Numbered from the stretch's first letter, positions 17,771 to 31,053 are shown. The stretch: 32,000 bases of DNA from Microcystis aeruginosa NIES-2549 (GCF_000981785.2 NZ_CP011304.1:480001-512000), one strand, 5' to 3'. Translations and numbers: made by a program. Notes: generated by a model from the letters alone, not told the origin.

Positions 17771-18787
17771 TTATCTTTCTTTGTCAGTTAAATCAATATA
17801 TTCAGTTTGTATTCGTTTATTCTTTATTAGTATTCTAAAATACGGACATTTCCCATTTACTGATAAATCTTTATCATCATTCCCTTTCCTGAATTTAATT
17901 ATTTCAAATTGGTCGGGATTAAATTTATGCAAAAATGTTATTGGCACACCCATATATCCCTTGTAATCTATTGGTATATCTTGTGTTTTATTAACATTAA
18001 TTCCATCATAATTGTCATATTTTGGATATTGAACTTCGTTGCCAAAATATCTTTTTGTGAGTTCTATATCTTCGTGCCGCTTAAAATTATCTAAATTAGT
18101 AAGCCATAAACAATTGTTCGGTGAGATTACTCTATTACCAGAGTTATCTATTCGAGTTTCTGTTCCATATAGTTCATAGTGTTCAGGTACAATAAAACCT
18201 GAAATACCTCTACCAAGATTTATTCCTAACCACGCCTTGTTTTCTTTAATAAGTTTGAAAATTTCTTTATAGGTTATTGCATTAATATTTCCAATTATCA
18301 AAAACTTTTTATCGTATTTAACCAATTGAGCTACATACTCTCTGAATAATGAAAATGGGGGATTGGTAACAACAATATCGGACTGCTTTAATAGTTCAAT
18401 GCTTTCCGAACTACGAAAATCACCATCTCCATTAAAGTAAACTAGGTCTGTTGAACTTGGTTTGTTTTTTTCGCCTTCTGTACCTGTATATTCAAAGAAA
18501 AACCCTTTTTCATCTTCTTCTGTATTAAATAAATTTTTTACTTGCTCTCTATAACAAGATGTTATTATTTTTTTAAGACCTAATTCATTAAAATTTGAGG
18601 TAAAATAATTAAAAAAGTTACTAATTCGGGGGTCATCGCAATTGCAATAAACCACTTGATTTTCAAAATGACTTTTATAATGCTGTAATTCGCTTTCTAT
18701 ATCTGAAAGCTGTGTATAAAACTCGTCACTTTTTGATTTTTTAGCTTTTTGTAATAATTCGTTTGTTGCATTTCTTGCCATTTTCAA
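17771..18787 (-). CDS. EcoRI-family N6-adenine DNA methyltransferase (predicted GAATTC specificity), apparently intact
   Basis: DIVVTNPPFSLF (NPPF catalytic motif). The N-terminus MARNATNELLQKAKKSKSDEFYTQ, then VVYCNCDDPR, GDGDFRSSES, PNNCLWLTNLD and GKCPYFRILIKNKR are colinear with M.EcoRI as I remember it. The gene is strongly AT-rich compared with its flanks. It sits 31 bp downstream of the R-gene remnant on the same strand. Confidence 0.8.
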   Translation of the reverse strand: MKMARNATNELLQKAKKSKSDEFYTQLSDIESELQHYKSHFENQVVYCNCDDPRISNFFNYFTSNFNELGLKKIITSCYREQVKNLFNTEEDEKGFFFEYTGTEGEKNKPSSTDLVYFNGDGDFRSSESIELLKQSDIVVTNPPFSLFREYVAQLVKYDKKFLIIGNINAITYKEIFKLIKENKAWLGINLGRGISGFIVPEHYELYGTETRIDNSGNRVISPNNCLWLTNLDNFKRHEDIELTKRYFGNEVQYPKYDNYDGINVNKTQDIPIDYKGYMGVPITFLHKFNPDQFEIIKFRKGNDDKDLSVNGKCPYFRILIKNKRIQTEYIDLTDKER

Positions 18788-18818
18788 CCTATTTTGATTT
18801 AATAAATCTTTGTTTTAG

Positions 18819-19655
18819 TTATTTACTTTTGTTTATCTGATTAAATATCTCACTGCCTAATACTTTAAGAGAGGTTTTAGAAATTTCAAGCATAATATCA
18901 AACATTTTTTTGACATCCCATTTTTCGCCATTTTCTTGTGTGTATATAGAAGTTGCTTGAAGCATAATTGTTTTATCTTTATGCTTGACAAACTTATTTT
19001 TACACAAATTGGTATTAATGAGCATTCCATAATTTGCAGAAGTTAACCTATCTAATCTATTTAGCGTTCCTGAATTTTATTCAATCGTTACAACCCTTCC
19101 ATCGGTTTTTTTAATTGAAATAGTTTCTGTTAAAAAATTTGAGCCTTCCAGAAATAATACATAGGTAAAATGAGATTCGGATAACATCAAATTAGCGATT
19201 TCAGATATGTTTTTATGGGATCTTTCTATCGCATTACCAGCAGCCATCAAATCTTGATCATTTTTTGCTCCTACAAGTTTTCCTGCTTTGATGTTTTCAA
19301 TGTCTTTACCCTGATGTTTAGCTTCCGAAACTAAAACGATTCTCCAATTACCGTTATCATCTTTTACTTCTATTATTCCACCATCGGGTATAATACTTGA
19401 ATTTGATACAAAAAGTGTTTGTCCTAATTCTGGGTCAATTTTCTTTAATGCTTCGTTTATTTCTTCTTTTTTTATGCTCTTTTTGTATTGAAAAGATAAT
19501 TGAGGAAACTACTTTTCAAGCTGTTCAATTACAAAAAGTGAAATTTTTCCAACAGTTCTGTCGTGTGATTTTGCTTCATCTCCAAATATACCAACTACAC
19601 CTTTAGACTCTTTATGTTGATTCGTTAATTTTTTTGATTGATTCTTTTTAGTCAT
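18819..19655 (-). pseudogene. EcoRI-family type II restriction endonuclease gene: full length and in frame, but interrupted by two nonsense codons (TAG 19509..19511, TAA 19077..19079)
   Basis: My manual minus-strand translation from ATG 19655 gives one 279-codon frame: MTKKNQSKKLTNQHKESKGVVGIFGDEAKSHDRTVGKISLFVIEQLEK*FPQLSFQYKKSIKKEEINEALKKIDPELGQTLFVSNSSIIPDGGIIEVKDDNGNWRIVLVSEAKHQGKDIENIKAGKLVGAKNDQDLMAAGNAIERSHKNISEIANLMLSESHFTYVLFLEGSNFLTETISIKKTDGRVVTIE*NSGTLNRLDRLTSANYGMLINTNLCKNKFVKHKDKTIMLQATSIYTQENGEKWDVKKMFDIMLEISKTSLKVLGSEIFNQINKSK. The PD..EAK catalytic motif and the MAAGNAIER recognition segment of R.EcoRI are present. Confidence 0.8.
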
Positions 19656-20052
19656 ATTGTGCCTTTTCTTTACTTAAATCTTCCACTTTCTGCTACAGAT
19701 AATGTATGTATAACTAAAAATTATACGGAAAATTTCTGGATAACACTCCTCAGAGTAACGATATGGGTTAACTTTCGGCATATCACCCCATCTAGGAGCA
19801 ATCGCTAGAAGTTTTCCCTATATCACGCCCAAAAGCCTGTTAGCCAGATTAGCATATTGCCAAAAACCTTGTTTAACTAAATTTCTGACAATTTAGGCTA
19901 ATTCTAGCGACGATTATTTGATCTGACCGCACCCCTTGACAAAAATTTATCATTATTCGATTCGTTTAATTGTCGGGGGACTCTGTAAAGATTTTTTACT
20001 GGGAAATCCACACCCACCAACAAACTTTTTCCAGCAAATCCTAATTCAACCT

Positions 20053-20086
20053 TTTGCTCCTGTACTTTTAGCAGCACAGGAGCAAA
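20053..20086 (-). terminator. 11-bp stem hairpin just downstream of the ccmO stop (possible terminator, non-canonical)
   Basis: TTTGCTCCTGT (20053..20063) pairs with ACAGGAGCAAA (20076..20086), 12-nt loop. On the minus-strand transcript the U-rich tract precedes rather than follows the stem, so the function is uncertain. Confidence 0.35.
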
Positions 20087-20100
20087 GCTGAAAATAAAAA

Positions 20101-20967
20101 TTAATAACCGTCTTCATCGGTGATAACTTCCACGGGAATCACTTCTTCTAACACTTTTTCCTGCATTTCTTGGCGACGAATTGGTATTTTGGTTTTTTCC
20201 AATTCTGGTAAAGCGACCAATTCCCGTTGTTTTTCCCGGACAGTATTGGGTAACAACATCGGTAAAGGTTCGGGAGTTTCTAACCAGTAGCTGGCCACCG
20301 GTAGAGTATGTTCTAAATCTTCCAATAAACGGGGAATAATCATCACCGCGTGCAGTTCACCGATTTTCTCCGCTTCCCGCATTCCCGCATCAATGGCCAC
20401 GGCCACATTAGCGACGGAACCCCGGATAATGGCCGTACACAAACCATCCCCAATTGTTTCGTAGGAAGCTAACTGCACATCGGCGGATTTTAACATGGCA
20501 TCAGCTGCCCCCACCATAGCAGGAAAACCGCGGGTTTCCAAGAGACCGATGGACATATTGCTCAGTTTGCTGAAACCCCGTTGACTTTGGGCAATTTCGG
20601 CTAAACGGCTACCAATTGGGAAAATTACCTCTAAATTGGGCATCGGTCGGGGAATAACCGATTTAGATACCAATTGTCCGAACTGTGCGGCGGTTTTTGC
20701 CCCTTCTTCCACTGCTAAACGCACATCGGCAATATTACCACGCACGATCGCCGTACAGTGACCACCGCCAATTTTTTCGTAACCCACGAGGGTAACTTCT
20801 GCCGATTTTAGCATCATATCCGCCGTCCCGACGATCGCCGGAAAGCTGAGGGTAGAGACTAAACCCAAGGCACTATCTTTGGGGTGACGCTTGGTTTTCA
20901 TCGTCCTTTGACCGGGGTTAGTTGTGGACGAGGGGGGAATGCTTCCATTAACTCTTAATCTAGACAT
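20101..20967 (-). CDS. ccmO: Carboxysome shell protein CcmO (tandem BMC domains plus C-terminal extension)
   Basis: Two BMC-H domains (ALGLVSTLSFPAIVGTADMMLKSAEV.. and IGLLETRGFPAMVGAADAMLKSADV..), followed by a ..VREKQRELVALPELEK.. tail like CcmO. The start may be the internal MKTKRHPKD rather than 20967. Confidence 0.8.
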   Translation of the reverse strand: MSRLRVNGSIPPSSTTNPGQRTMKTKRHPKDSALGLVSTLSFPAIVGTADMMLKSAEVTLVGYEKIGGGHCTAIVRGNIADVRLAVEEGAKTAAQFGQLVSKSVIPRPMPNLEVIFPIGSRLAEIAQSQRGFSKLSNMSIGLLETRGFPAMVGAADAMLKSADVQLASYETIGDGLCTAIIRGSVANVAVAIDAGMREAEKIGELHAVMIIPRLLEDLEHTLPVASYWLETPEPLPMLLPNTVREKQRELVALPELEKTKIPIRRQEMQEKVLEEVIPVEVITDEDGY

Positions 20968-21114
20968 TGAAGATAAACTTGCCCTAACAGGTACGAAGGG
21001 GGTGATTGTCAGCTATCCTGTTACTATCTAGTCTATCCTGTTAACCTTAATTGCTATTGAAGATTTTTGAGGGATTAGATAAATTTTAGTTATTGTAGCT
21101 TGATCAAATTGTCT

Positions 21115-22194
21115 ATGACAGAACAGCCTCGCAGTACAGATGATCGAATCAGCGAAACGGAAGCGACCGAATTAATGCGCTCGCTGCTTCATAAGGAAGG
21201 AAATTGGGTGAATTGGGGGCAAAAATGTCAAAAACTGCAAAAAGCTGGCTACGATTCCCAGTTAATCTTTGAACAAACCGGGTTTCAAAATGCCCAACAA
21301 AATTTAATTATTGTCGCTGCCCAAGTTTTTGAGAGTTTAATCAAAGCAGGAGCAGATGAAGATTTATTAAGTTACTACATCGGGCCGCGCAGTGATGTGC
21401 TATACGAATTACGGATTCTCAACCAAGAACAAAGATTGGGGGCAGCGAAATTAGCGGCAGAAAAAAGGATTGAGGTGGCTGAAGCACACGATATCGCCAA
21501 AGCTATCCAAGATTTTTCCCGTTTATCCCAGATTCCCAGTGAATTTACCCGTCATCCTGGAGATGCGATCGCTTACCAGTGTTGGAAACGGGGCAAACAA
21601 AAGCGAGATTTAGCCGAAAGAGCGAAATTAATCGCTAAAGGTTTGAAATTTGCCCATTCTGACTCGGCCAGACAGGCGATCGAGTCCTTACTACAAGATT
21701 TTACCGTTACTCCCTCCCGTAGCGCACCGTTGCTACCCGTCCATCGTTTACAGGATGAGGACGAATTAGCCAGAATTATTCCTTTAGTAGGAAGATTTCC
21801 GGTGACGGTAACTGATATAAAACACACAGAAAGTTTGAGCGTCGAGGAACCTTTTCGACTGGTAACGGTGGGGGATAAACAAACGATTGTGCCTCTCCCC
21901 GGTTGGCAAGCAATTCTCAAGGCGATCGATCCTGTAGCTATTTTATGGCCTAGTGATCAATTACCTCGATCGATTGCCACCAGATCCGAGGAAGTGTTAT
22001 TAGTAATCGATCGAGTTTTGGCCGAATGGGACGTGAACAATTATTATCTAGTGGAGAAGGATAATTCCGTTTTTTTACAATGGTTTGATAGTTCCCCCGA
22101 TGTCACCATACTAGGTGAATTAGTCTTGATTTTAAGAGCAAAAAATATCCTCGATGAAAAAAACATCACCGAACCCTGGCAAATGGACGACTAA
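21115..22194 (+). CDS. raf1: RuBisCO accumulation factor 1 (Raf1)
   Basis: KEGNWVNWGQKCQKLQKAGYDSQLIFEQTGF, HPGDAIAYQCWK, KGLKFAHSDSARQAIESLLQDFTV, LPGWQAIL and the C-terminal ILDEKNITEPWQMDD are colinear with cyanobacterial Raf1. I place the start at ATG 21115 (MTEQPRS). The track start at 21100 is TTG. Confidence 0.85.
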   Translation: MTEQPRSTDDRISETEATELMRSLLHKEGNWVNWGQKCQKLQKAGYDSQLIFEQTGFQNAQQNLIIVAAQVFESLIKAGADEDLLSYYIGPRSDVLYELRILNQEQRLGAAKLAAEKRIEVAEAHDIAKAIQDFSRLSQIPSEFTRHPGDAIAYQCWKRGKQKRDLAERAKLIAKGLKFAHSDSARQAIESLLQDFTVTPSRSAPLLPVHRLQDEDELARIIPLVGRFPVTVTDIKHTESLSVEEPFRLVTVGDKQTIVPLPGWQAILKAIDPVAILWPSDQLPRSIATRSEEVLLVIDRVLAEWDVNNYYLVEKDNSVFLQWFDSSPDVTILGELVLILRAKNILDEKNITEPWQMDD

Positions 22195-23510: not shown

Positions 23511-24134
23511 ATGTCGAGTGCTATTACCGAAGCGATCACGACTATTGCCTTGGATGAGACAAGATTTAATCTCTCCTTAACAGAAGATGGGGCATTTTTT
23601 CCCGAATGGAAAAGTGATTTACTGGCCCTATCTAGCCATGAAAAAAAGAGTTTAGATGAACTAATACAAAAGTATTTATACCAAAGATCGGCAGGACAGT
23701 TATTAGAAGAAACCGTGACTTTATTGTTAGTTTCTCCCCTACTAGCGATTGCGGGTTTTTACGATCCGCCTTTGCGAGTACGCGCAGAGGAATCGGTAAG
23801 CTTAACCGTCGATGATGGGGAAGAAATACTATCGGGTAGAATCGATGTGTTAGTCTGGTTAAATCAGTTTTGGGTGGTAATTGTAGAATCAAAAAAAACC
23901 GCCCTATCGGTTTGGACTGCCTTACCGCAAACCTTAGCCTATTTGATGGCTAATCCCCGGACCGAAAAACCTGGCTTTGCCCTCGTCACCAATGGAGATG
24001 ATATTTTATTGGTCAAATTGAGAGCTAATGCCCATCATTATGCCCTATCTAGGGTATTTGCTCCCTTTATTTCCAGAGAAGAACTATATAGGGTTTTGCA
24101 GATTTTCAAACATATCGGTGCAGCGATCAAATAA
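23511..24134 (+). CDS. Hypothetical protein with a PD-(D/E)xK nuclease-like core (restriction-endonuclease fold), 5 nt downstream of csaB
   Basis: GRIDVLVWLNQFWVVIVESKK gives a D..(hydrophobic strand)..E-S-K arrangement typical of PD-(D/E)xK / HsdR-N-terminal-like domains. This is motif-level evidence only. Confidence 0.45.
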   Translation: MSSAITEAITTIALDETRFNLSLTEDGAFFPEWKSDLLALSSHEKKSLDELIQKYLYQRSAGQLLEETVTLLLVSPLLAIAGFYDPPLRVRAEESVSLTVDDGEEILSGRIDVLVWLNQFWVVIVESKKTALSVWTALPQTLAYLMANPRTEKPGFALVTNGDDILLVKLRANAHHYALSRVFAPFISREELYRVLQIFKHIGAAIK

Positions 24135-24194: not shown

Positions 24195-24485
24195 CTAATT
24201 GAGATGGGAGTCTTTGGGAATAACATCCAAACCGAGGAGAACCTTTTGGGTATTGGACATATCGCCGATAATTCTTTGTAGGGGTGGGGGAAGTTGTTTG
24301 ACTAAAGTAGGAGTTACGAGAATTTTATCCTGTTCCGCTAATTGGGGCTGTTCGAGAACATCAATTATTTCTACCGTATAAAGATCCGACAACTCCTCGC
24401 GACAGATACGAAAAATATTGGCGATCGCCCTCTGGGATTTACTTGAATCACCCATAATGTAGAGTTTGAGAAGATATTGACTCAT
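24195..24485 (-). CDS. kaiB: KaiB-family (thioredoxin-like) circadian clock protein homologue, probably a KaiB3-type paralogue
   Basis: LKLYIMGDSSKSQRAIANI..VEIIDVLEQPQLAEQDKILVTPTLVKQLPPPLQRIIGDMSNTQKVLLGLD is colinear with KaiB. The ATG overlaps the upstream gene's TGA (ATGA at 24482..24485). Confidence 0.85.
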   Translation of the reverse strand: MSQYLLKLYIMGDSSKSQRAIANIFRICREELSDLYTVEIIDVLEQPQLAEQDKILVTPTLVKQLPPPLQRIIGDMSNTQKVLLGLDVIPKDSHLN

Positions 24486-25348
24486 GATTGCGTGTTATTG
24501 AATAGTTTAATGTTGCTGAGACCGATATAGTATTTACGATAGAAAGAGACGAGATAACCCATCAATTCCAAGACCATGAGACGACCTTCGCTAACGTAGG
24601 CCTGCGCTTTGGCCAGGGTGACATCCTGATTTTTTTGGCGTAGGGTGGTGGTATGAATATCGACCACATCGCGAGGACTCGCTTTTAAGAATCCTAACTT
24701 ATCGGCCAAGCTTCGCAGTCGTTCCGATAGATTATGTTCCACTTTGTATGCTTGTTCTTCTAAAGCTAAATCTAATAACTCTCCGTAATTTTGGACTAAT
24801 TCTTGAAAAATATCGGGAATACTCTGCCTTATTGCCTCAGAACCGAACATTTTCGCCGTTATGCTAGTTTGCACTCCCTTGATTAACTGTTCCAGTTCGC
24901 GAAATTCTTCTTCCTGTTGTTGATGTTTAAGATTGAGGATATATTGCTGACGCTCGATCGCCACACGAATTTGATAGACTAAAAGACTACTATCGATATT
25001 ATTTAACTGAATATAACCGTCAGCACCGAGTTGAAAGGCTTTAACGACTAATTTCTCATCATTGCTAGTAGTTTGAACGACTATCGGTATATCAGAGGCT
25101 AATTCTCTGGTTTTGACTAAGATATTTAAACCGGGGGGGACAGAGATTTCCAAGCTTAAGAGGATAAGATCAAATTTCTCCCCTGCCAGTTTTTCGGCAG
25201 TTTCCTCTAGATCCTGAGCTTGGGTGAGGGTAAAAGTCAACCCCTTGGCCAGGGAACATTGGGGGGCCTTTAACAGCAATCTCTGGATTAATTTAACAGT
25301 CGTCGGTTCGTCCTCTATCAATAAAATCCTACAGAGATCCCTAGTCAT
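24482..25348 (-). CDS. kaiA3: Chimeric receiver-like / KaiA-like protein (KaiA3-type): N-terminal (pseudo)receiver domain plus C-terminal helical KaiA-like domain
   Basis: N-terminus RILLIEDEP..FDLILLSLEI..IPIVVQTTS..GADGYIQL follows the REC fold pattern. Ser65 (codon 25154..25156) occupies the phospho-acceptor Asp position, and no KP Lys follows GADGY. The C-terminus (PRDVVDIHTTTL...RLMVLELMGYLVSFYRKYY) parallels the KaiA C-terminal helices (..VVEIHMELM...LIDVIAHLCEMYRR). It is translationally coupled to kaiB. Confidence 0.5.
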   Translation of the reverse strand: MTRDLCRILLIEDEPTTVKLIQRLLLKAPQCSLAKGLTFTLTQAQDLEETAEKLAGEKFDLILLSLEISVPPGLNILVKTRELASDIPIVVQTTSNDEKLVVKAFQLGADGYIQLNNIDSSLLVYQIRVAIERQQYILNLKHQQQEEEFRELEQLIKGVQTSITAKMFGSEAIRQSIPDIFQELVQNYGELLDLALEEQAYKVEHNLSERLRSLADKLGFLKASPRDVVDIHTTTLRQKNQDVTLAKAQAYVSEGRLMVLELMGYLVSFYRKYYIGLSNIKLFNNTQS

Positions 25349-25575
25349 TGTTAATCGATCGCTAAAATTATCTTTTTTCCCCCTACTTTCATAGTAAGCC
25401 CATCTTTGGGAAACTCAAGGACAAAATCACAGTATAACCTGCCCGCGCATTTAAATTGCTTGATAAGGCACTCTTGCAAGAGGCAACAGTAAAAGGATAG
25501 GCAGTGAAAATGCGTCTTAGCTTATCTCCAGCAAAAGTCAGAAGGGCTAAATTGCTCTTAAAGTCCTTAATTTAA

Positions 25576-25643: not shown

Positions 25644-27845
25644 CTATTTTGACTCAATTCGGCGAATCGCCACCACTGCCGGCCGGGGAGGTTGATTAAC
25701 TTGACCACTAGGCCAATTCGACCCTAGGGGTACTTGTCGTATTTGTTCAAATTCCTGTCCATTAGTGGTTTTAAGGGCAAATTTACGGTTTTCAAAGGCT
25801 AAATCTCGACGAATTCCCCCCGCTTCCCCCGGATGCTGTACTGCCAAAAATAACGTCTCTTGGTCGGGAGTAAAGTACAATCCCGTTAATTCCGCATCCA
25901 TGGGAGCGATAGCAAAAGGATAGGGATGCTCTTGACCCTTGGCAAACACCCAAGCGCTATTATTACCAAAAATCCCCAATAAATCCCGTTGACTAACCGG
26001 GACCCCTTGGGGATAACGAGTTTTCATCTCTCGATTTAACCCACCCGTAGAAATATCGCTAACCATCCAGAGATTTCCCTGTTTATCGAAAGCGAGGTTA
26101 TCGGGATTAGAAAAACCCTCACCTTTCTCTGTCGGTTCCCCTCCATAAGCGACCACATCCCAACGAAAACTTAAGGAAGCAGCATCGTTGTTATCTTCCC
26201 TTAAGCTGATAATCCAACCAAATTCGTAGGGGATTTCGCCATTTGGTCCCTTAAATATCTCCTTATCGGCTCCTCCCTCCGCTTCACTGGGACTACCAGA
26301 GGTAAAGGTTATATATAAAGTGCCATTCTCGTCCACTTCCGTATCTTCTGGCCGACCAGTACAAGTGACCCCAACGGCGTTAGCGGCAAAATGAGCATCG
26401 ATGAGAATTGCTCCCTGTTTTTCCGTCCCATTACCTTCATACAGGTCTGCGAGGGTCTTATATTTAGCTTTGTAGGCTAGAATCTCCTCATCGTCCTTAA
26501 ATAGCAGTAATTGATTATCATTGACCGTTCTTTCGGGATTTGGCAAGGCTACCACCCCATCCCCGCGACTAGCGGCAATTTGACTCGGTAGGACGGGATT
26601 TATCTCCGTGTCGGGATTTAAGGGTATCCAATAACCGGTTTTATCGGGGTTGAATTTCGCCCCGTAGAGCATTCCTTTTTCTAGGAGTTTTGAGTTATTT
26701 TTCGCCTTAATATCGCTAATTTTGCCCTCGGAAACAAATTTATAGATATGACCGCCTCTGCGATCGCATCCTGAATAAACCGCCAAGGGTTGCCCCGTTT
26801 GAGCGAGAAAAGCGACCGCTTCATGGCGAAAACGCCCTAACCAAGTGTGTTTTGTGCCATAATCGTCGGGATTGGCAGGATCCACCTCCACCATCCAACC
26901 GTATTTATTTCCCGCTAACCCGAAGACGTTACCCCGGCCATCCACTTCCCCACTATTGAGAATAAAGGGGGTAGTATCGGGATGCAAAGAGGAACCATCT
27001 TTTAACACTACCTCCGTCACTTGGTCTTGAAAGTTCTCCTCGGCACTAAATACGGTCCCCCAAGGCGTTGTTCCCCCGGCGCAATTTTGAAACGTTCCGA
27101 TAATTTTTGCCCCTAATCCGTCATCGTAGCCAAGTTTATCGGTTTTGGTAAAAATTGCTACAGCAGGACCGGTGGCTTTCAGGTAACGACCGTCCTTTAG
27201 TCCAGAGATACCGGTAATGCGGCGATCGGCTTTACTATAGGTACGTTGCCATTTTCCCGTTTGATCTTTAGCGAGGGAAATTACGCCAATTCCCTGATCA
27301 ATTAAGCCTTCTAGGGATATTTCCTCGATTTTTGCCTTTAAGCTGGCATCTTGCAGACGATAGGCGGCAATTTCACCCTTTTCGTTGGTTTTTTCTCGTA
27401 CTTCCTTGACGGGTAGGGTTTTACCAATCACTTGTTCAAAGGTTTGTAGCCAAGTACGACCACTGATATATTCAAAATTAACGGTTAGATAACCTTGACC
27501 CGCACTGGTTTCAATAAAAGATAGATAATCATTGTTATAACCGAAACGGGAATCACCCACTGCATCCCCCCACTGGGCCAGCACATCAGATGTGAATCCT
27601 TGCGGAAGAACGAGATCATCTAGGACTTTATAGGTTTGATAGGCATTTTTTTGGCTTTCATCGCTCATACCGTCAATTTTTAAGGGAATTGGCAGTTTGA
27701 CTGGGGCAAAGTTTAAGCCGAAACTATTAGCAGCGATCGCAGGACTGCTAATCAGAGAGGAATATTTTTTCTCTTGCAGACTGAAAAAAGAGACACCAGC
27801 AGTGGCAGTTAAAAAGGTGAGGAAATTACGGCGAGAAATACTCAT
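25644..27845 (-). CDS. phoX: PhoX-family (DUF839) Tat-exported alkaline phosphatase
   Basis: Twin-arginine signal MSISRRNFLTFLTATAGVS. It is a large beta-propeller-type protein with motifs FNCAGGTTPWGT-like (FQNCAGGTTPWGTVFSAEEN) and PDNLAFD, typical of PhoX/DUF839. 733 aa. Confidence 0.8.
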   Translation of the reverse strand: MSISRRNFLTFLTATAGVSFFSLQEKKYSSLISSPAIAANSFGLNFAPVKLPIPLKIDGMSDESQKNAYQTYKVLDDLVLPQGFTSDVLAQWGDAVGDSRFGYNNDYLSFIETSAGQGYLTVNFEYISGRTWLQTFEQVIGKTLPVKEVREKTNEKGEIAAYRLQDASLKAKIEEISLEGLIDQGIGVISLAKDQTGKWQRTYSKADRRITGISGLKDGRYLKATGPAVAIFTKTDKLGYDDGLGAKIIGTFQNCAGGTTPWGTVFSAEENFQDQVTEVVLKDGSSLHPDTTPFILNSGEVDGRGNVFGLAGNKYGWMVEVDPANPDDYGTKHTWLGRFRHEAVAFLAQTGQPLAVYSGCDRRGGHIYKFVSEGKISDIKAKNNSKLLEKGMLYGAKFNPDKTGYWIPLNPDTEINPVLPSQIAASRGDGVVALPNPERTVNDNQLLLFKDDEEILAYKAKYKTLADLYEGNGTEKQGAILIDAHFAANAVGVTCTGRPEDTEVDENGTLYITFTSGSPSEAEGGADKEIFKGPNGEIPYEFGWIISLREDNNDAASLSFRWDVVAYGGEPTEKGEGFSNPDNLAFDKQGNLWMVSDISTGGLNREMKTRYPQGVPVSQRDLLGIFGNNSAWVFAKGQEHPYPFAIAPMDAELTGLYFTPDQETLFLAVQHPGEAGGIRRDLAFENRKFALKTTNGQEFEQIRQVPLGSNWPSGQVNQPPRPAVVAIRRIESK

Positions 27846-30180: not shown

Positions 30181-31053
30181 AAAGGGGTCGTTTTGAACTC
30201 GACAAGTAAAGAATACGAGAGATATATAGAGCAGTCAGCTATCGGCTTTTAGCTTTTAGCAAATTACTGCTATTTTTTGCTTTTGAGCTTGGTTAACGTC
30301 TCGTTAAAAAGCGAAACATTAACAGCAATACTCTCCCTACTAATTATATTTTACCAATTCTTTTCCAGGAGTTCACTCTGATACTTTTCTTGACGATCTC
30401 TCCAGATCATGGTCTGTTGGTGTTTGTCCCTGTTATACTAAATCCGTTGAGTATAGGCTACATATCAGGACAGGCAAAAGGCAATAGGCAATAGGCAAAA
30501 GGAGCAATAGATAATCAGTTTTTAATAACCAGATTTAGTGTTACACTGTGGGTGCCAGCACAGCTTCCTTGTCTGATTCCGAAATCAGGTTATTTACTAC
30601 TCAATCCACAAAAAAAATGTCTGAAGGGCTTAAATATTAAGCGATCCAAACATTTTCTCATTGCAATCGGAGGGTGATATTGACTTTATGTCTTAACTTC
30701 GAGCTTACGATAGAAACCTGGCTGTTAATGTAGCCTATTTAACCAAAATATCGATTTTTTGCTTATTTATAGGGATAAAAAATGGCCTTTGCTTAAAATT
30801 ATCCGAGTTTAGAGACAATTACTTAGTAATAATCTCCCAATAAGCTAGGCCTCAGAGACCGGCAAGGCATCCTCAAGCCTTGATTTGTCCTTGCTTGCCA
30901 TGGACGGCGATCACCAAGGGCGGAGTTAATCTACCAATACAGATATCATAACTCGATCGAGGGAGAAAAACCAAGAACCTGCGAGAAAATTGCCGATTTA
31001 TCCCGGCCAATATTACTGCTCAGATCGCCCCAGATGATGCCGTCAGTCATTCT

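Follow-up and report, generated by a model that had tools for sequence, protein, structure and literature searches.

Orthology and synteny of the gene pair

Which role can be assigned to a receiver-like protein whose gene overlaps that of a KaiB homolog when no kaiC lies beside the two? The question is raised by two minus-strand genes in a 32,000-nucleotide (nt) stretch of the Microcystis aeruginosa NIES-2549 genome (NZ_CP011304.1:480001-512000), which as a whole is referred to here as the window and from whose first letter all positions are counted. Both open reading frames (ORFs) that an earlier note on this DNA had described, one for a 288-amino-acid (aa) protein and one for a coupled KaiB, are present (24482..25348 and 24195..24485), and the TGA of the first can be read directly in the sequence as overlapping the ATG of the second in an ATGA at 24482..24485. 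We conclude, with a probability of roughly 85%, that the two genes are orthologs of kaiA3 and kaiB3 and that their products, together with a KaiC3 encoded elsewhere, form the second KaiABC-type oscillator known from Synechocystis. This reading is carried by gene structure, orthology, fold and synteny, by a KaiC3 that occurs in the genus and by purifying selection on the pair; the biochemistry of the Microcystis proteins would follow that of their Synechocystis orthologs.

KaiA3 was defined and named by Köbler et al. (2024, Nat Commun 15:7674, PMC11372060), who reported orthologs in 15 cyanobacteria and gave Microcystis as an ortholog without D65 and with an unlinked kaiC3, KaiC3 being present in strain NIES-843. 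In Synechocystis, KaiA3 binds KaiC3 and promotes its phosphorylation, KaiB3 opposes this effect, and the three proteins oscillate in vitro (PMC11372060). That work already contains the pair with its name and probable function as well as both Microcystis peculiarities, and the identification made here is correct, not new.

The larger gene (kaiA3, assigned by ORF, synteny and homology) encodes a chimeric KaiA homolog consisting of a pseudo-receiver, a linker and a KaiA-like four-helix domain. Its product is 97 to 99% identical to Microcystis proteins that carry the database names "response regulator" or "NarL/FixJ family", and the window DNA is ~96% identical to other Microcystis loci. In a survey for which one genome per species was scanned, we found 80 loci encoding relatives of the 288-aa protein, the non-cyanobacterial ones spanning Chloroflexota, Nitrospirota, Proteobacteria, Planctomycetota and others. 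A kaiB is the next gene downstream on the same strand in all 80, and a 500-aa kaiC follows kaiB in all non-cyanobacterial and most cyanobacterial loci. The comparison with Synechocystis was made with a protein of Synechocystis salina LEGE 00031 (L054) as a stand-in for KaiA3 of strain PCC 6803. This 299-aa protein is 47% identical to the Microcystis protein over residues 1-282, covering both domains; its gene is followed by kaiB, with no kaiC within 9.5 kb, and both its length and this arrangement match those described for Sll0485/KaiA3 of PCC 6803. The proposal of the earlier note that the locus has the KaiA3-KaiB3-type arrangement of Synechocystis thus agrees with full-length homology, a downstream kaiB and, at the level of the genus, an unlinked kaiC3.

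With respect to the smaller protein (96 aa), the Pfam KaiB family (PF07689) matches residues 7-87 (E = 7.5e-29). It is 67 to 89% identical to the cyanobacterial KaiBs encoded downstream of kaiA3, compared with 47% for the KaiB1 of Crocosphaera, in which a kaiA1B1C1 cluster is present in three loci; KaiB1 forms a separate clade in a neighbor-joining (NJ) tree of KaiBs that was built without a KaiB2 reference. The assignment to the kaiA3-linked clade, proposed earlier as a check, is therefore favored by identity and tree alike. Furthermore, the protein scores below both NCBIfam KaiB equivalog cutoffs (104.6 against 110 and 99.8 against 145.3), and these subcutoff scores, together with the identity to kaiA3-linked KaiBs, indicate that the pair is kaiA3-kaiB3.

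The ATGA overlap is common to the window and to all 12 Microcystis loci compared with it, and it is also found in Pannus brasiliensis, Pannus being the sister of Microcystis; in all loci other than those of Microcystis and Pannus, kaiA3 and kaiB3 are spaced by 8 to 388 nt.

Fold of the C-terminal domain

Residues 178-278 of the 288-aa protein (24515..24817, minus strand) are predicted to form a KaiA-like four-helix bundle. An AlphaFold2 model of residues 170-283, trimmed of the low-confidence linker, has a predicted local distance difference test (pLDDT) score of 93 and a predicted template modeling (pTM) score of 0.84, with helices at residues 178-201, 207-220, 225-239 and 245-278. When this model was compared with the whole PDB by Foldseek, the top seven matches were all KaiA C-domains (1q6a, 5jwr, 1v2z, 5n8y, 1r8j, 4g86 and 1r5q), with probabilities of 0.99 to 1.00 and a root mean square deviation of 2.8 Å over 97 to 100 residues. 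The template modeling (TM) scores of these seven, normalized by the query, are 0.55 to 0.67 (0.60 to 0.67 in six of them), and scores normalized by the target reach 0.78 in KaiA matches lower in the list. A longer model that includes the low-confidence linker gives the same ranking, with KaiA first. The C-terminal domain is also the most conserved part of the KaiA3 family, and no helix-turn-helix (HTH) domain was found in the 288-aa protein.

KaiC3 and selection on the pair

The window contains no KaiC, as had been noted earlier for the neighborhood of the pair: neither Pfam searches of the large ORFs nor a tblastn search that used KaiC3 from Microcystis as query (best E = 6) detected one. It likewise contains no canonical KaiA, and tblastn revealed neither a hidden kaiC nor a hidden kaiA1. 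A search with the KaiC3 of Hydrococcus, which is encoded in a linked kaiA3B3C3 operon, recovered three Microcystis proteins at 87 to 88% identity (P0148, P0197 and P0214) and a Pannus protein at 89%, all four of which are 54 to 55% identical to KaiC1. P0148 is 87 to 94% identical to the KaiC3s that are linked to kaiA3B3, and neither of its Walker A motifs nor the "HISTITD" phosphorylation site has been lost. Its gene is flanked by those for an aminotransferase and a solute-binding protein, and neither kaiA nor kaiB is near it on the contig, so that a kaiC3-type paralog of the unlinked kind, for which the earlier note had proposed a search, exists in the genus.

We observe that the pair is under purifying selection. 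Pooled over 13 Microcystis sequences, the ratio of nonsynonymous to synonymous polymorphism (pN/pS) is lowest in KaiB3 (0.02) and the KaiA-like domain (0.04) and somewhat higher in the receiver (0.11) and the linker (0.12), and both ORFs as well as the ATGA overlap are intact in all 13. Since the ratios are low and the ORFs intact, the pseudo-receiver is being maintained by selection and is not decaying.

N-terminal receiver domain

A Response_reg domain is detected in the N-terminal part of the protein (Pfam PF00072, residues 8-114, E = 2.1e-12). NarL is the best NCBIfam similarity of the protein, and NarL (1a04) is also among the best solved natural receivers; the receiver-fold domain as a whole, here apparently a pseudo-receiver, covers residues 8-130 (24959..25327, minus strand). 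Alignment to solved response regulators places Ser65 (codon AGC, 25154..25156) at the position of the acceptor Asp at the end of beta3 ("DLILLSLEIS" versus "DLILTDINMP" and "DVVILDIMLP"). The site of the Lys that follows beta5 in the GADxYxxKP motif is occupied by L115-N116 (25001..25006; "GADGYIQLNN" versus "GADGFITKPF" or "GADDYLPKPF"), as both the receiver and the family alignments agree. The acidic pair after beta1 (E12-D13, 25310..25315) and the Thr/Ser site after beta4 (T93) are retained, all of these codons being on the minus strand.

Across a family alignment of 115 homologs, the acceptor column holds Asp in 72, and the columns of the acidic pair hold Glu in 110 and Asp in 108. Position 65 is Ser in all 13 Microcystis sequences (the window and the 12 loci compared with it), and no other Asp takes over the acceptor position in either the receiver or the family alignment, so that the three residue assignments of the earlier note (Ser65 as acceptor, a missing Lys and a retained acidic pair) are borne out. 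The Lys is often absent from cyanobacterial KaiA3 even where Asp65 is retained, and its absence by itself therefore says little. Taken together, Ser65 and the missing Lys indicate that the Microcystis N-domain is not a conventional phospho-receiver. Judged from these residues, it would be closed to conventional phosphotransfer from a histidine kinase and would be a pseudo-receiver as in canonical KaiA, probably acting structurally or by binding, as the KaiA pseudo-receiver does.

Proposed mechanism

Orthology to the Synechocystis proteins tested by Köbler et al. (PMC11372060) suggests the following mechanism. The C-terminal four-helix domain of KaiA3 would dimerize, bind KaiC3 and stimulate its autophosphorylation at a conserved Ser/Thr pair, and KaiB3 would bind phosphorylated KaiC3, counteract KaiA3 and drive dephosphorylation, the three proteins together giving a rhythm of ~24 h as in Synechocystis. 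The ATGA overlap may couple the synthesis of KaiB3 to that of KaiA3 and so fix their ratio, and input to the Microcystis N-domain would arrive via binding, not phosphotransfer.

Contrary evidence and alternative explanations

Several results weigh against reading the pair as the activator and KaiB genes of a second oscillator, and most of them concern the C-terminal domain at the sequence level. None of the KaiA families that true KaiA proteins carry (PF07688 and PF21714) is found in a Pfam scan of the 288-aa protein, even at E ≤ 10, and Pfam and NCBIfam scans of this protein alone return the receiver domain only; the protein is outside the canonical KaiA family as Pfam defines that family. 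A hidden Markov model (HMM) of the KaiA3 C terminus matches the KaiA C-domains 1q6a, 1v2z and 5jwr among PDB sequences at E = 0.1 to 0.4, in register over ~73 residues, and unrelated helical proteins (LpiR1 and SHERP) score equal to or above KaiA in such profile searches. An hhalign comparison with 48 canonical KaiA C-domains aligned 90 columns with P = 0.019 and a "probability" of 2.5%; in a column-shuffle control, 5 of 200 shuffles reached this score, none of them with more than 39 aligned columns, and the addition of non-cyanobacterial sequences to the profile brought no gain. The sequence similarity of the domain to KaiA is thus weak and, on its own, not significant. The Foldseek E-values are 0.035 to 0.5 for the trimmed model, none of them ≤0.001, and ≥0.12 for the longer one; trimming the linker raised the TM-scores and left the E-values above 0.001. 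Nonsignificant Foldseek E-values are usual for small helical bundles. In addition, the evidence for KaiC3 is at the level of the genus, from other Microcystis assemblies and from NIES-843 (PMC11372060), and a modification of Ser65 by some other means is conceivable.

Of the KaiA-like C terminus that the earlier note had proposed, the fold stands, through the model and its seven top matches, and the sequence likeness is only marginal and lacks a Pfam KaiA match. What nevertheless supports a KaiA-like function of the domain is the combination of its fold, a linkage to kaiB and kaiC that does not vary and the biochemistry published for the Synechocystis ortholog. The same evidence bears on the notion that the 288-aa protein might be an orphan response regulator of the ordinary kind, with a helical output domain that is uncharacterized, and that it lies next to kaiB by chance. 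Its database names, the Pfam match to a receiver domain only and the nonsignificant profile similarity to KaiA would all suit such a regulator. An incidental neighborhood is at odds, however, with linkage to kaiB in every one of the 80 loci and to kaiC3, which extends over cyanobacteria, Chloroflexota, Nitrospirota, Proteobacteria, Planctomycetota and others, with a fold search that ranks KaiA first, with the lack of an HTH domain and with an ortholog in Synechocystis that acts biochemically as a KaiA (PMC11372060), and we consider this explanation the least credible of all. Nor do we expect the pair to be a decaying, nonfunctional remnant of a kaiA3B3C3 operon that has lost its kaiC3, which is very improbable. 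The absence of kaiC3 from the locus and a receiver without two of its catalytic residues are what such decay might leave behind, but the selection data contradict it, with ORFs and overlap intact in 13 of 13 sequences and pN/pS values of 0.02 to 0.12, and Microcystis genomes do encode a conserved KaiC3 ortholog elsewhere, a split arrangement that is functional in Synechocystis (PMC11372060).

The main target of KaiA3 and KaiB3 in Microcystis might also be the canonical KaiC1-based oscillator, or an output pathway, which they would modulate instead of KaiC3. It is true that kaiC3 is not cotranscribed with the pair and that the two oscillators of Synechocystis are reported to be interconnected (PMC11372060). 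Cognate specificity is indicated, however, by the findings that Synechococcus KaiA is inactive on KaiC3 and that KaiB1 does not substitute for KaiB3 in Synechocystis, KaiA3, KaiB3 and KaiC3 co-occur significantly (PMC11372060), and the Microcystis KaiC3 is highly conserved, all of which makes a principal role on KaiC1 improbable. A further alternative concerns only the input and is compatible with a KaiA3 role: the receiver domain may still work as a switch by a route other than Asp phosphorylation, such as phosphorylation of Ser65 by a Ser/Thr kinase or binding of a ligand such as an oxidized quinone. Purifying selection acts on the domain (pN/pS of 0.11), which still has E12-D13 and T93; Microcystis sequences invariably have Ser at site 65, a residue found there again in Lyngbya CCY1209 and Roseofilum; and binding of quinones is reported for the pseudo-receiver of KaiA (PMC11372060). 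Close relatives, however, have Gly (Pannus and Chroococcopsis) or Asn at site 65, which argues for simple loss of the acceptor rather than a need for a phosphorylatable Ser, and we regard an alternative switch as rather unlikely.

Survey of acceptor loss and kaiC3 linkage

The published account names only Pleurocapsa and Microcystis for the missing Asp and two exceptions for an unlinked kaiC3 (PMC11372060), and a 2026 review still attributes to KaiA3 a genuine receiver in which the Asp is conserved. Among 63 species-level loci that encode a receiver (49 cyanobacterial and 14 non-cyanobacterial), we find the acceptor Asp in 48; the 15 loci that lack it are all cyanobacterial (15/49 versus 0/14; loci with a change fall in the range L014-L059). 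The replacements are Ser in Microcystis, Lyngbya CCY1209 and Roseofilum, Gly in Pannus and Chroococcopsis, and Asn in Hydrococcus, Pleurocapsa, Cyanothece UBA12306 and others, with Glu and Phe also occurring. Parsimony on an NJ tree gives a rough estimate of at least eight independent changes from Asp to another residue. As for kaiC3, it is absent downstream of kaiA3-kaiB3 in 12 species-level loci for which at least 2 kb of downstream sequence was seen, including those of Pannus, Snowella, Geminocystis, Synechocystis salina and several metagenome-assembled genomes or uncultured lineages (L011, L029, L031, L045, L048, L049, L051, L052, L053, L054 and L058, with 2 to 9.7 kb downstream). We considered whether Asp65 tends to be lost where kaiC3 is separate and rejected this, since Hydrococcus combines Asn with a linked kaiC3 and Synechocystis combines Asp with an unlinked one.

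These results slightly correct the published "two exceptions", in that Asp loss is recurrent and confined to cyanobacteria and kaiC3 separation occurs in about a dozen loci; recurrent receiver degeneration is a small refinement and not a new system. A tentative interpretation, which we hold to be possible but doubtful, is that the KaiA3 receiver is repeatedly turning into a pseudo-receiver, only in cyanobacteria, and that Microcystis-like lineages have switched from histidine-kinase input to input independent of phosphorylation. If so, the recurrent loss of Asp would replay the step behind the canonical KaiA pseudo-receiver, and the Asp-less lineages would be natural "input-blind" variants of the second oscillator. 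The Microcystis pair matters little as a discovery and is of some use in practice. Among toxin-producing cyanobacteria that form freshwater blooms, Microcystis is the main one, and it would possess a second Kai oscillator whose activator is closed to phosphoryl input, which would make its KaiA3 a natural test case for the contribution of the KaiA3 receiver domain.

Outside the cyanobacteria, the survey also returned loci of different architecture. In Dehalococcoidia, Syntrophales, Desulfobacterales and Caldilineaceae (L072, L076, L077 and L080; also L078 and L079), the protein encoded upstream of kaiB-kaiC matches the KaiA3 C-domain only, at 47 to 59% identity, and its N terminus is different or longer (up to 463 aa) and not a single receiver. 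The "Ca. Magnetocorallium" locus (L064, 7092..12754) holds two tandem kaiA3-like/kaiB/kaiC sets on one strand, and in five non-cyanobacterial loci (L060, L063, L066, L070 and L080) extra receiver proteins are encoded just 3' of kaiC.

Comparison with known Kai systems

The closest known counterpart is the KaiA3 (Sll0485)-KaiB3 (Sll0486)-KaiC3 (Slr1942) system of Synechocystis PCC 6803, whose KaiA3 likewise combines a NarL-like receiver fold with a KaiA-like four-helix C-domain, and in which kaiB3 lies directly downstream and kaiC3 at a separate locus without kaiA or kaiB beside it. In contrast to the Synechocystis protein, which has 299 aa, that of Microcystis has 288, with Ser in place of the acceptor Asp and no conserved Lys, and the ~220-nt gap between kaiA3 and kaiB3 in Synechocystis-type loci is replaced by the ATGA overlap. 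Similarity to canonical KaiA (Synechococcus elongatus and Thermosynechococcus; 1r8j, 1q6a, 1v2z and 5jwr) lies in an N-terminal receiver-like domain without acceptor Asp, a C-terminal four-helix bundle and a gene directly upstream of kaiB. The C-domains, however, share only 15 to 22% identity, the Microcystis N-domain is a clear Response_reg match whereas the KaiA pseudo-receiver is not, and the KaiA3 family is a separate clade (PMC11372060) with KaiC3, not KaiC1, as partner.

The kaiA3-kaiB3-kaiC3 operons of other bacteria, cyanobacterial and non-cyanobacterial (among them Crocosphaera watsonii, Hydrococcus, "Ca. Magnetobacterium" and Anaerolineales), encode orthologous KaiA3 and KaiB3 in the same order but, unlike Microcystis, have kaiC3 directly downstream. 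The non-cyanobacterial KaiA3 proteins also differ from that of Microcystis in that all 14 receivers keep Asp, Thr/Ser and Lys and look like genuine phospho-receivers. The KaiBC hourglass timers of Rhodobacter sphaeroides and Rhodopseudomonas palustris share with Microcystis a KaiB and a KaiC outside a canonical kaiABC cluster, but they have no KaiA and rely on an extended KaiC C terminus (PMC11372060), whereas Microcystis has a KaiA-type activator.

Transcription unit and other features of the window

The gene downstream of kaiB3 (23511..24134) lies on the plus strand and is thus convergent, in agreement with the earlier note, and upstream of kaiA3 a PhoX alkaline phosphatase is encoded on the minus strand (25644..27845). 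PhoX is not constant as the upstream neighbor: several Microcystis genomes diverge from the window ~85 nt 5' of the kaiA3 start (25430-25434) and keep the block in between (divergent loci are L001, L002, L003, L006, L008 and L004), and in Microcystis ichthyoblabe (L004) the upstream sequence departs from the window almost as far as the kaiA3 ATG. The block (25349..25434, minus strand) carries a -10-like TACTAT (25391..25396); most genomes keep the block, and Pannus does so in part, with GGCTTAC(T/C)ATGAA also conserved there. Since the block is kept where upstream synteny ends, we infer that kaiA3 and kaiB3 form their own transcription unit, of which 25349..25434 is probably the promoter and 5' untranslated region. 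A scan for consensus promoters and terminators around kaiA3-kaiB3 gave nothing above shuffled sequences.

Elsewhere in the window, two adjoining large RTX calcium-binding repeat proteins are encoded on the minus strand (4072..5667 and 5885..7375), each with seven to eight HemolysinCabind repeat matches. The region 16051..17319 (minus strand), in which a PIN-domain protein (16897..17319) lies beside two overlapping small ORFs (16051..16425 and 16406..16708), looks like toxin-antitoxin modules. Next to an EcoRI-type adenine methyltransferase (17771..18787, minus strand; Pfam E = 1e-130), a stretch of 1.3 kb (18800..20100) holds only ORFs of <70 aa, and the enzyme could be an orphan methylase or have a degraded restriction partner. 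At 20101..22194, a 288-aa protein with two bacterial microcompartment (BMC) domains, a CcmO-like carboxysome shell protein, is encoded divergently from the Rubisco accumulation factor Raf1. Finally, an Rfam match to the small RNA NsiR4 (nitrogen stress-induced RNA 4; 49.9 bits versus a gathering score of 40, E = 3e-8) lies on the minus strand at 30614..30694, in a stretch without any ORF of at least 90 aa.

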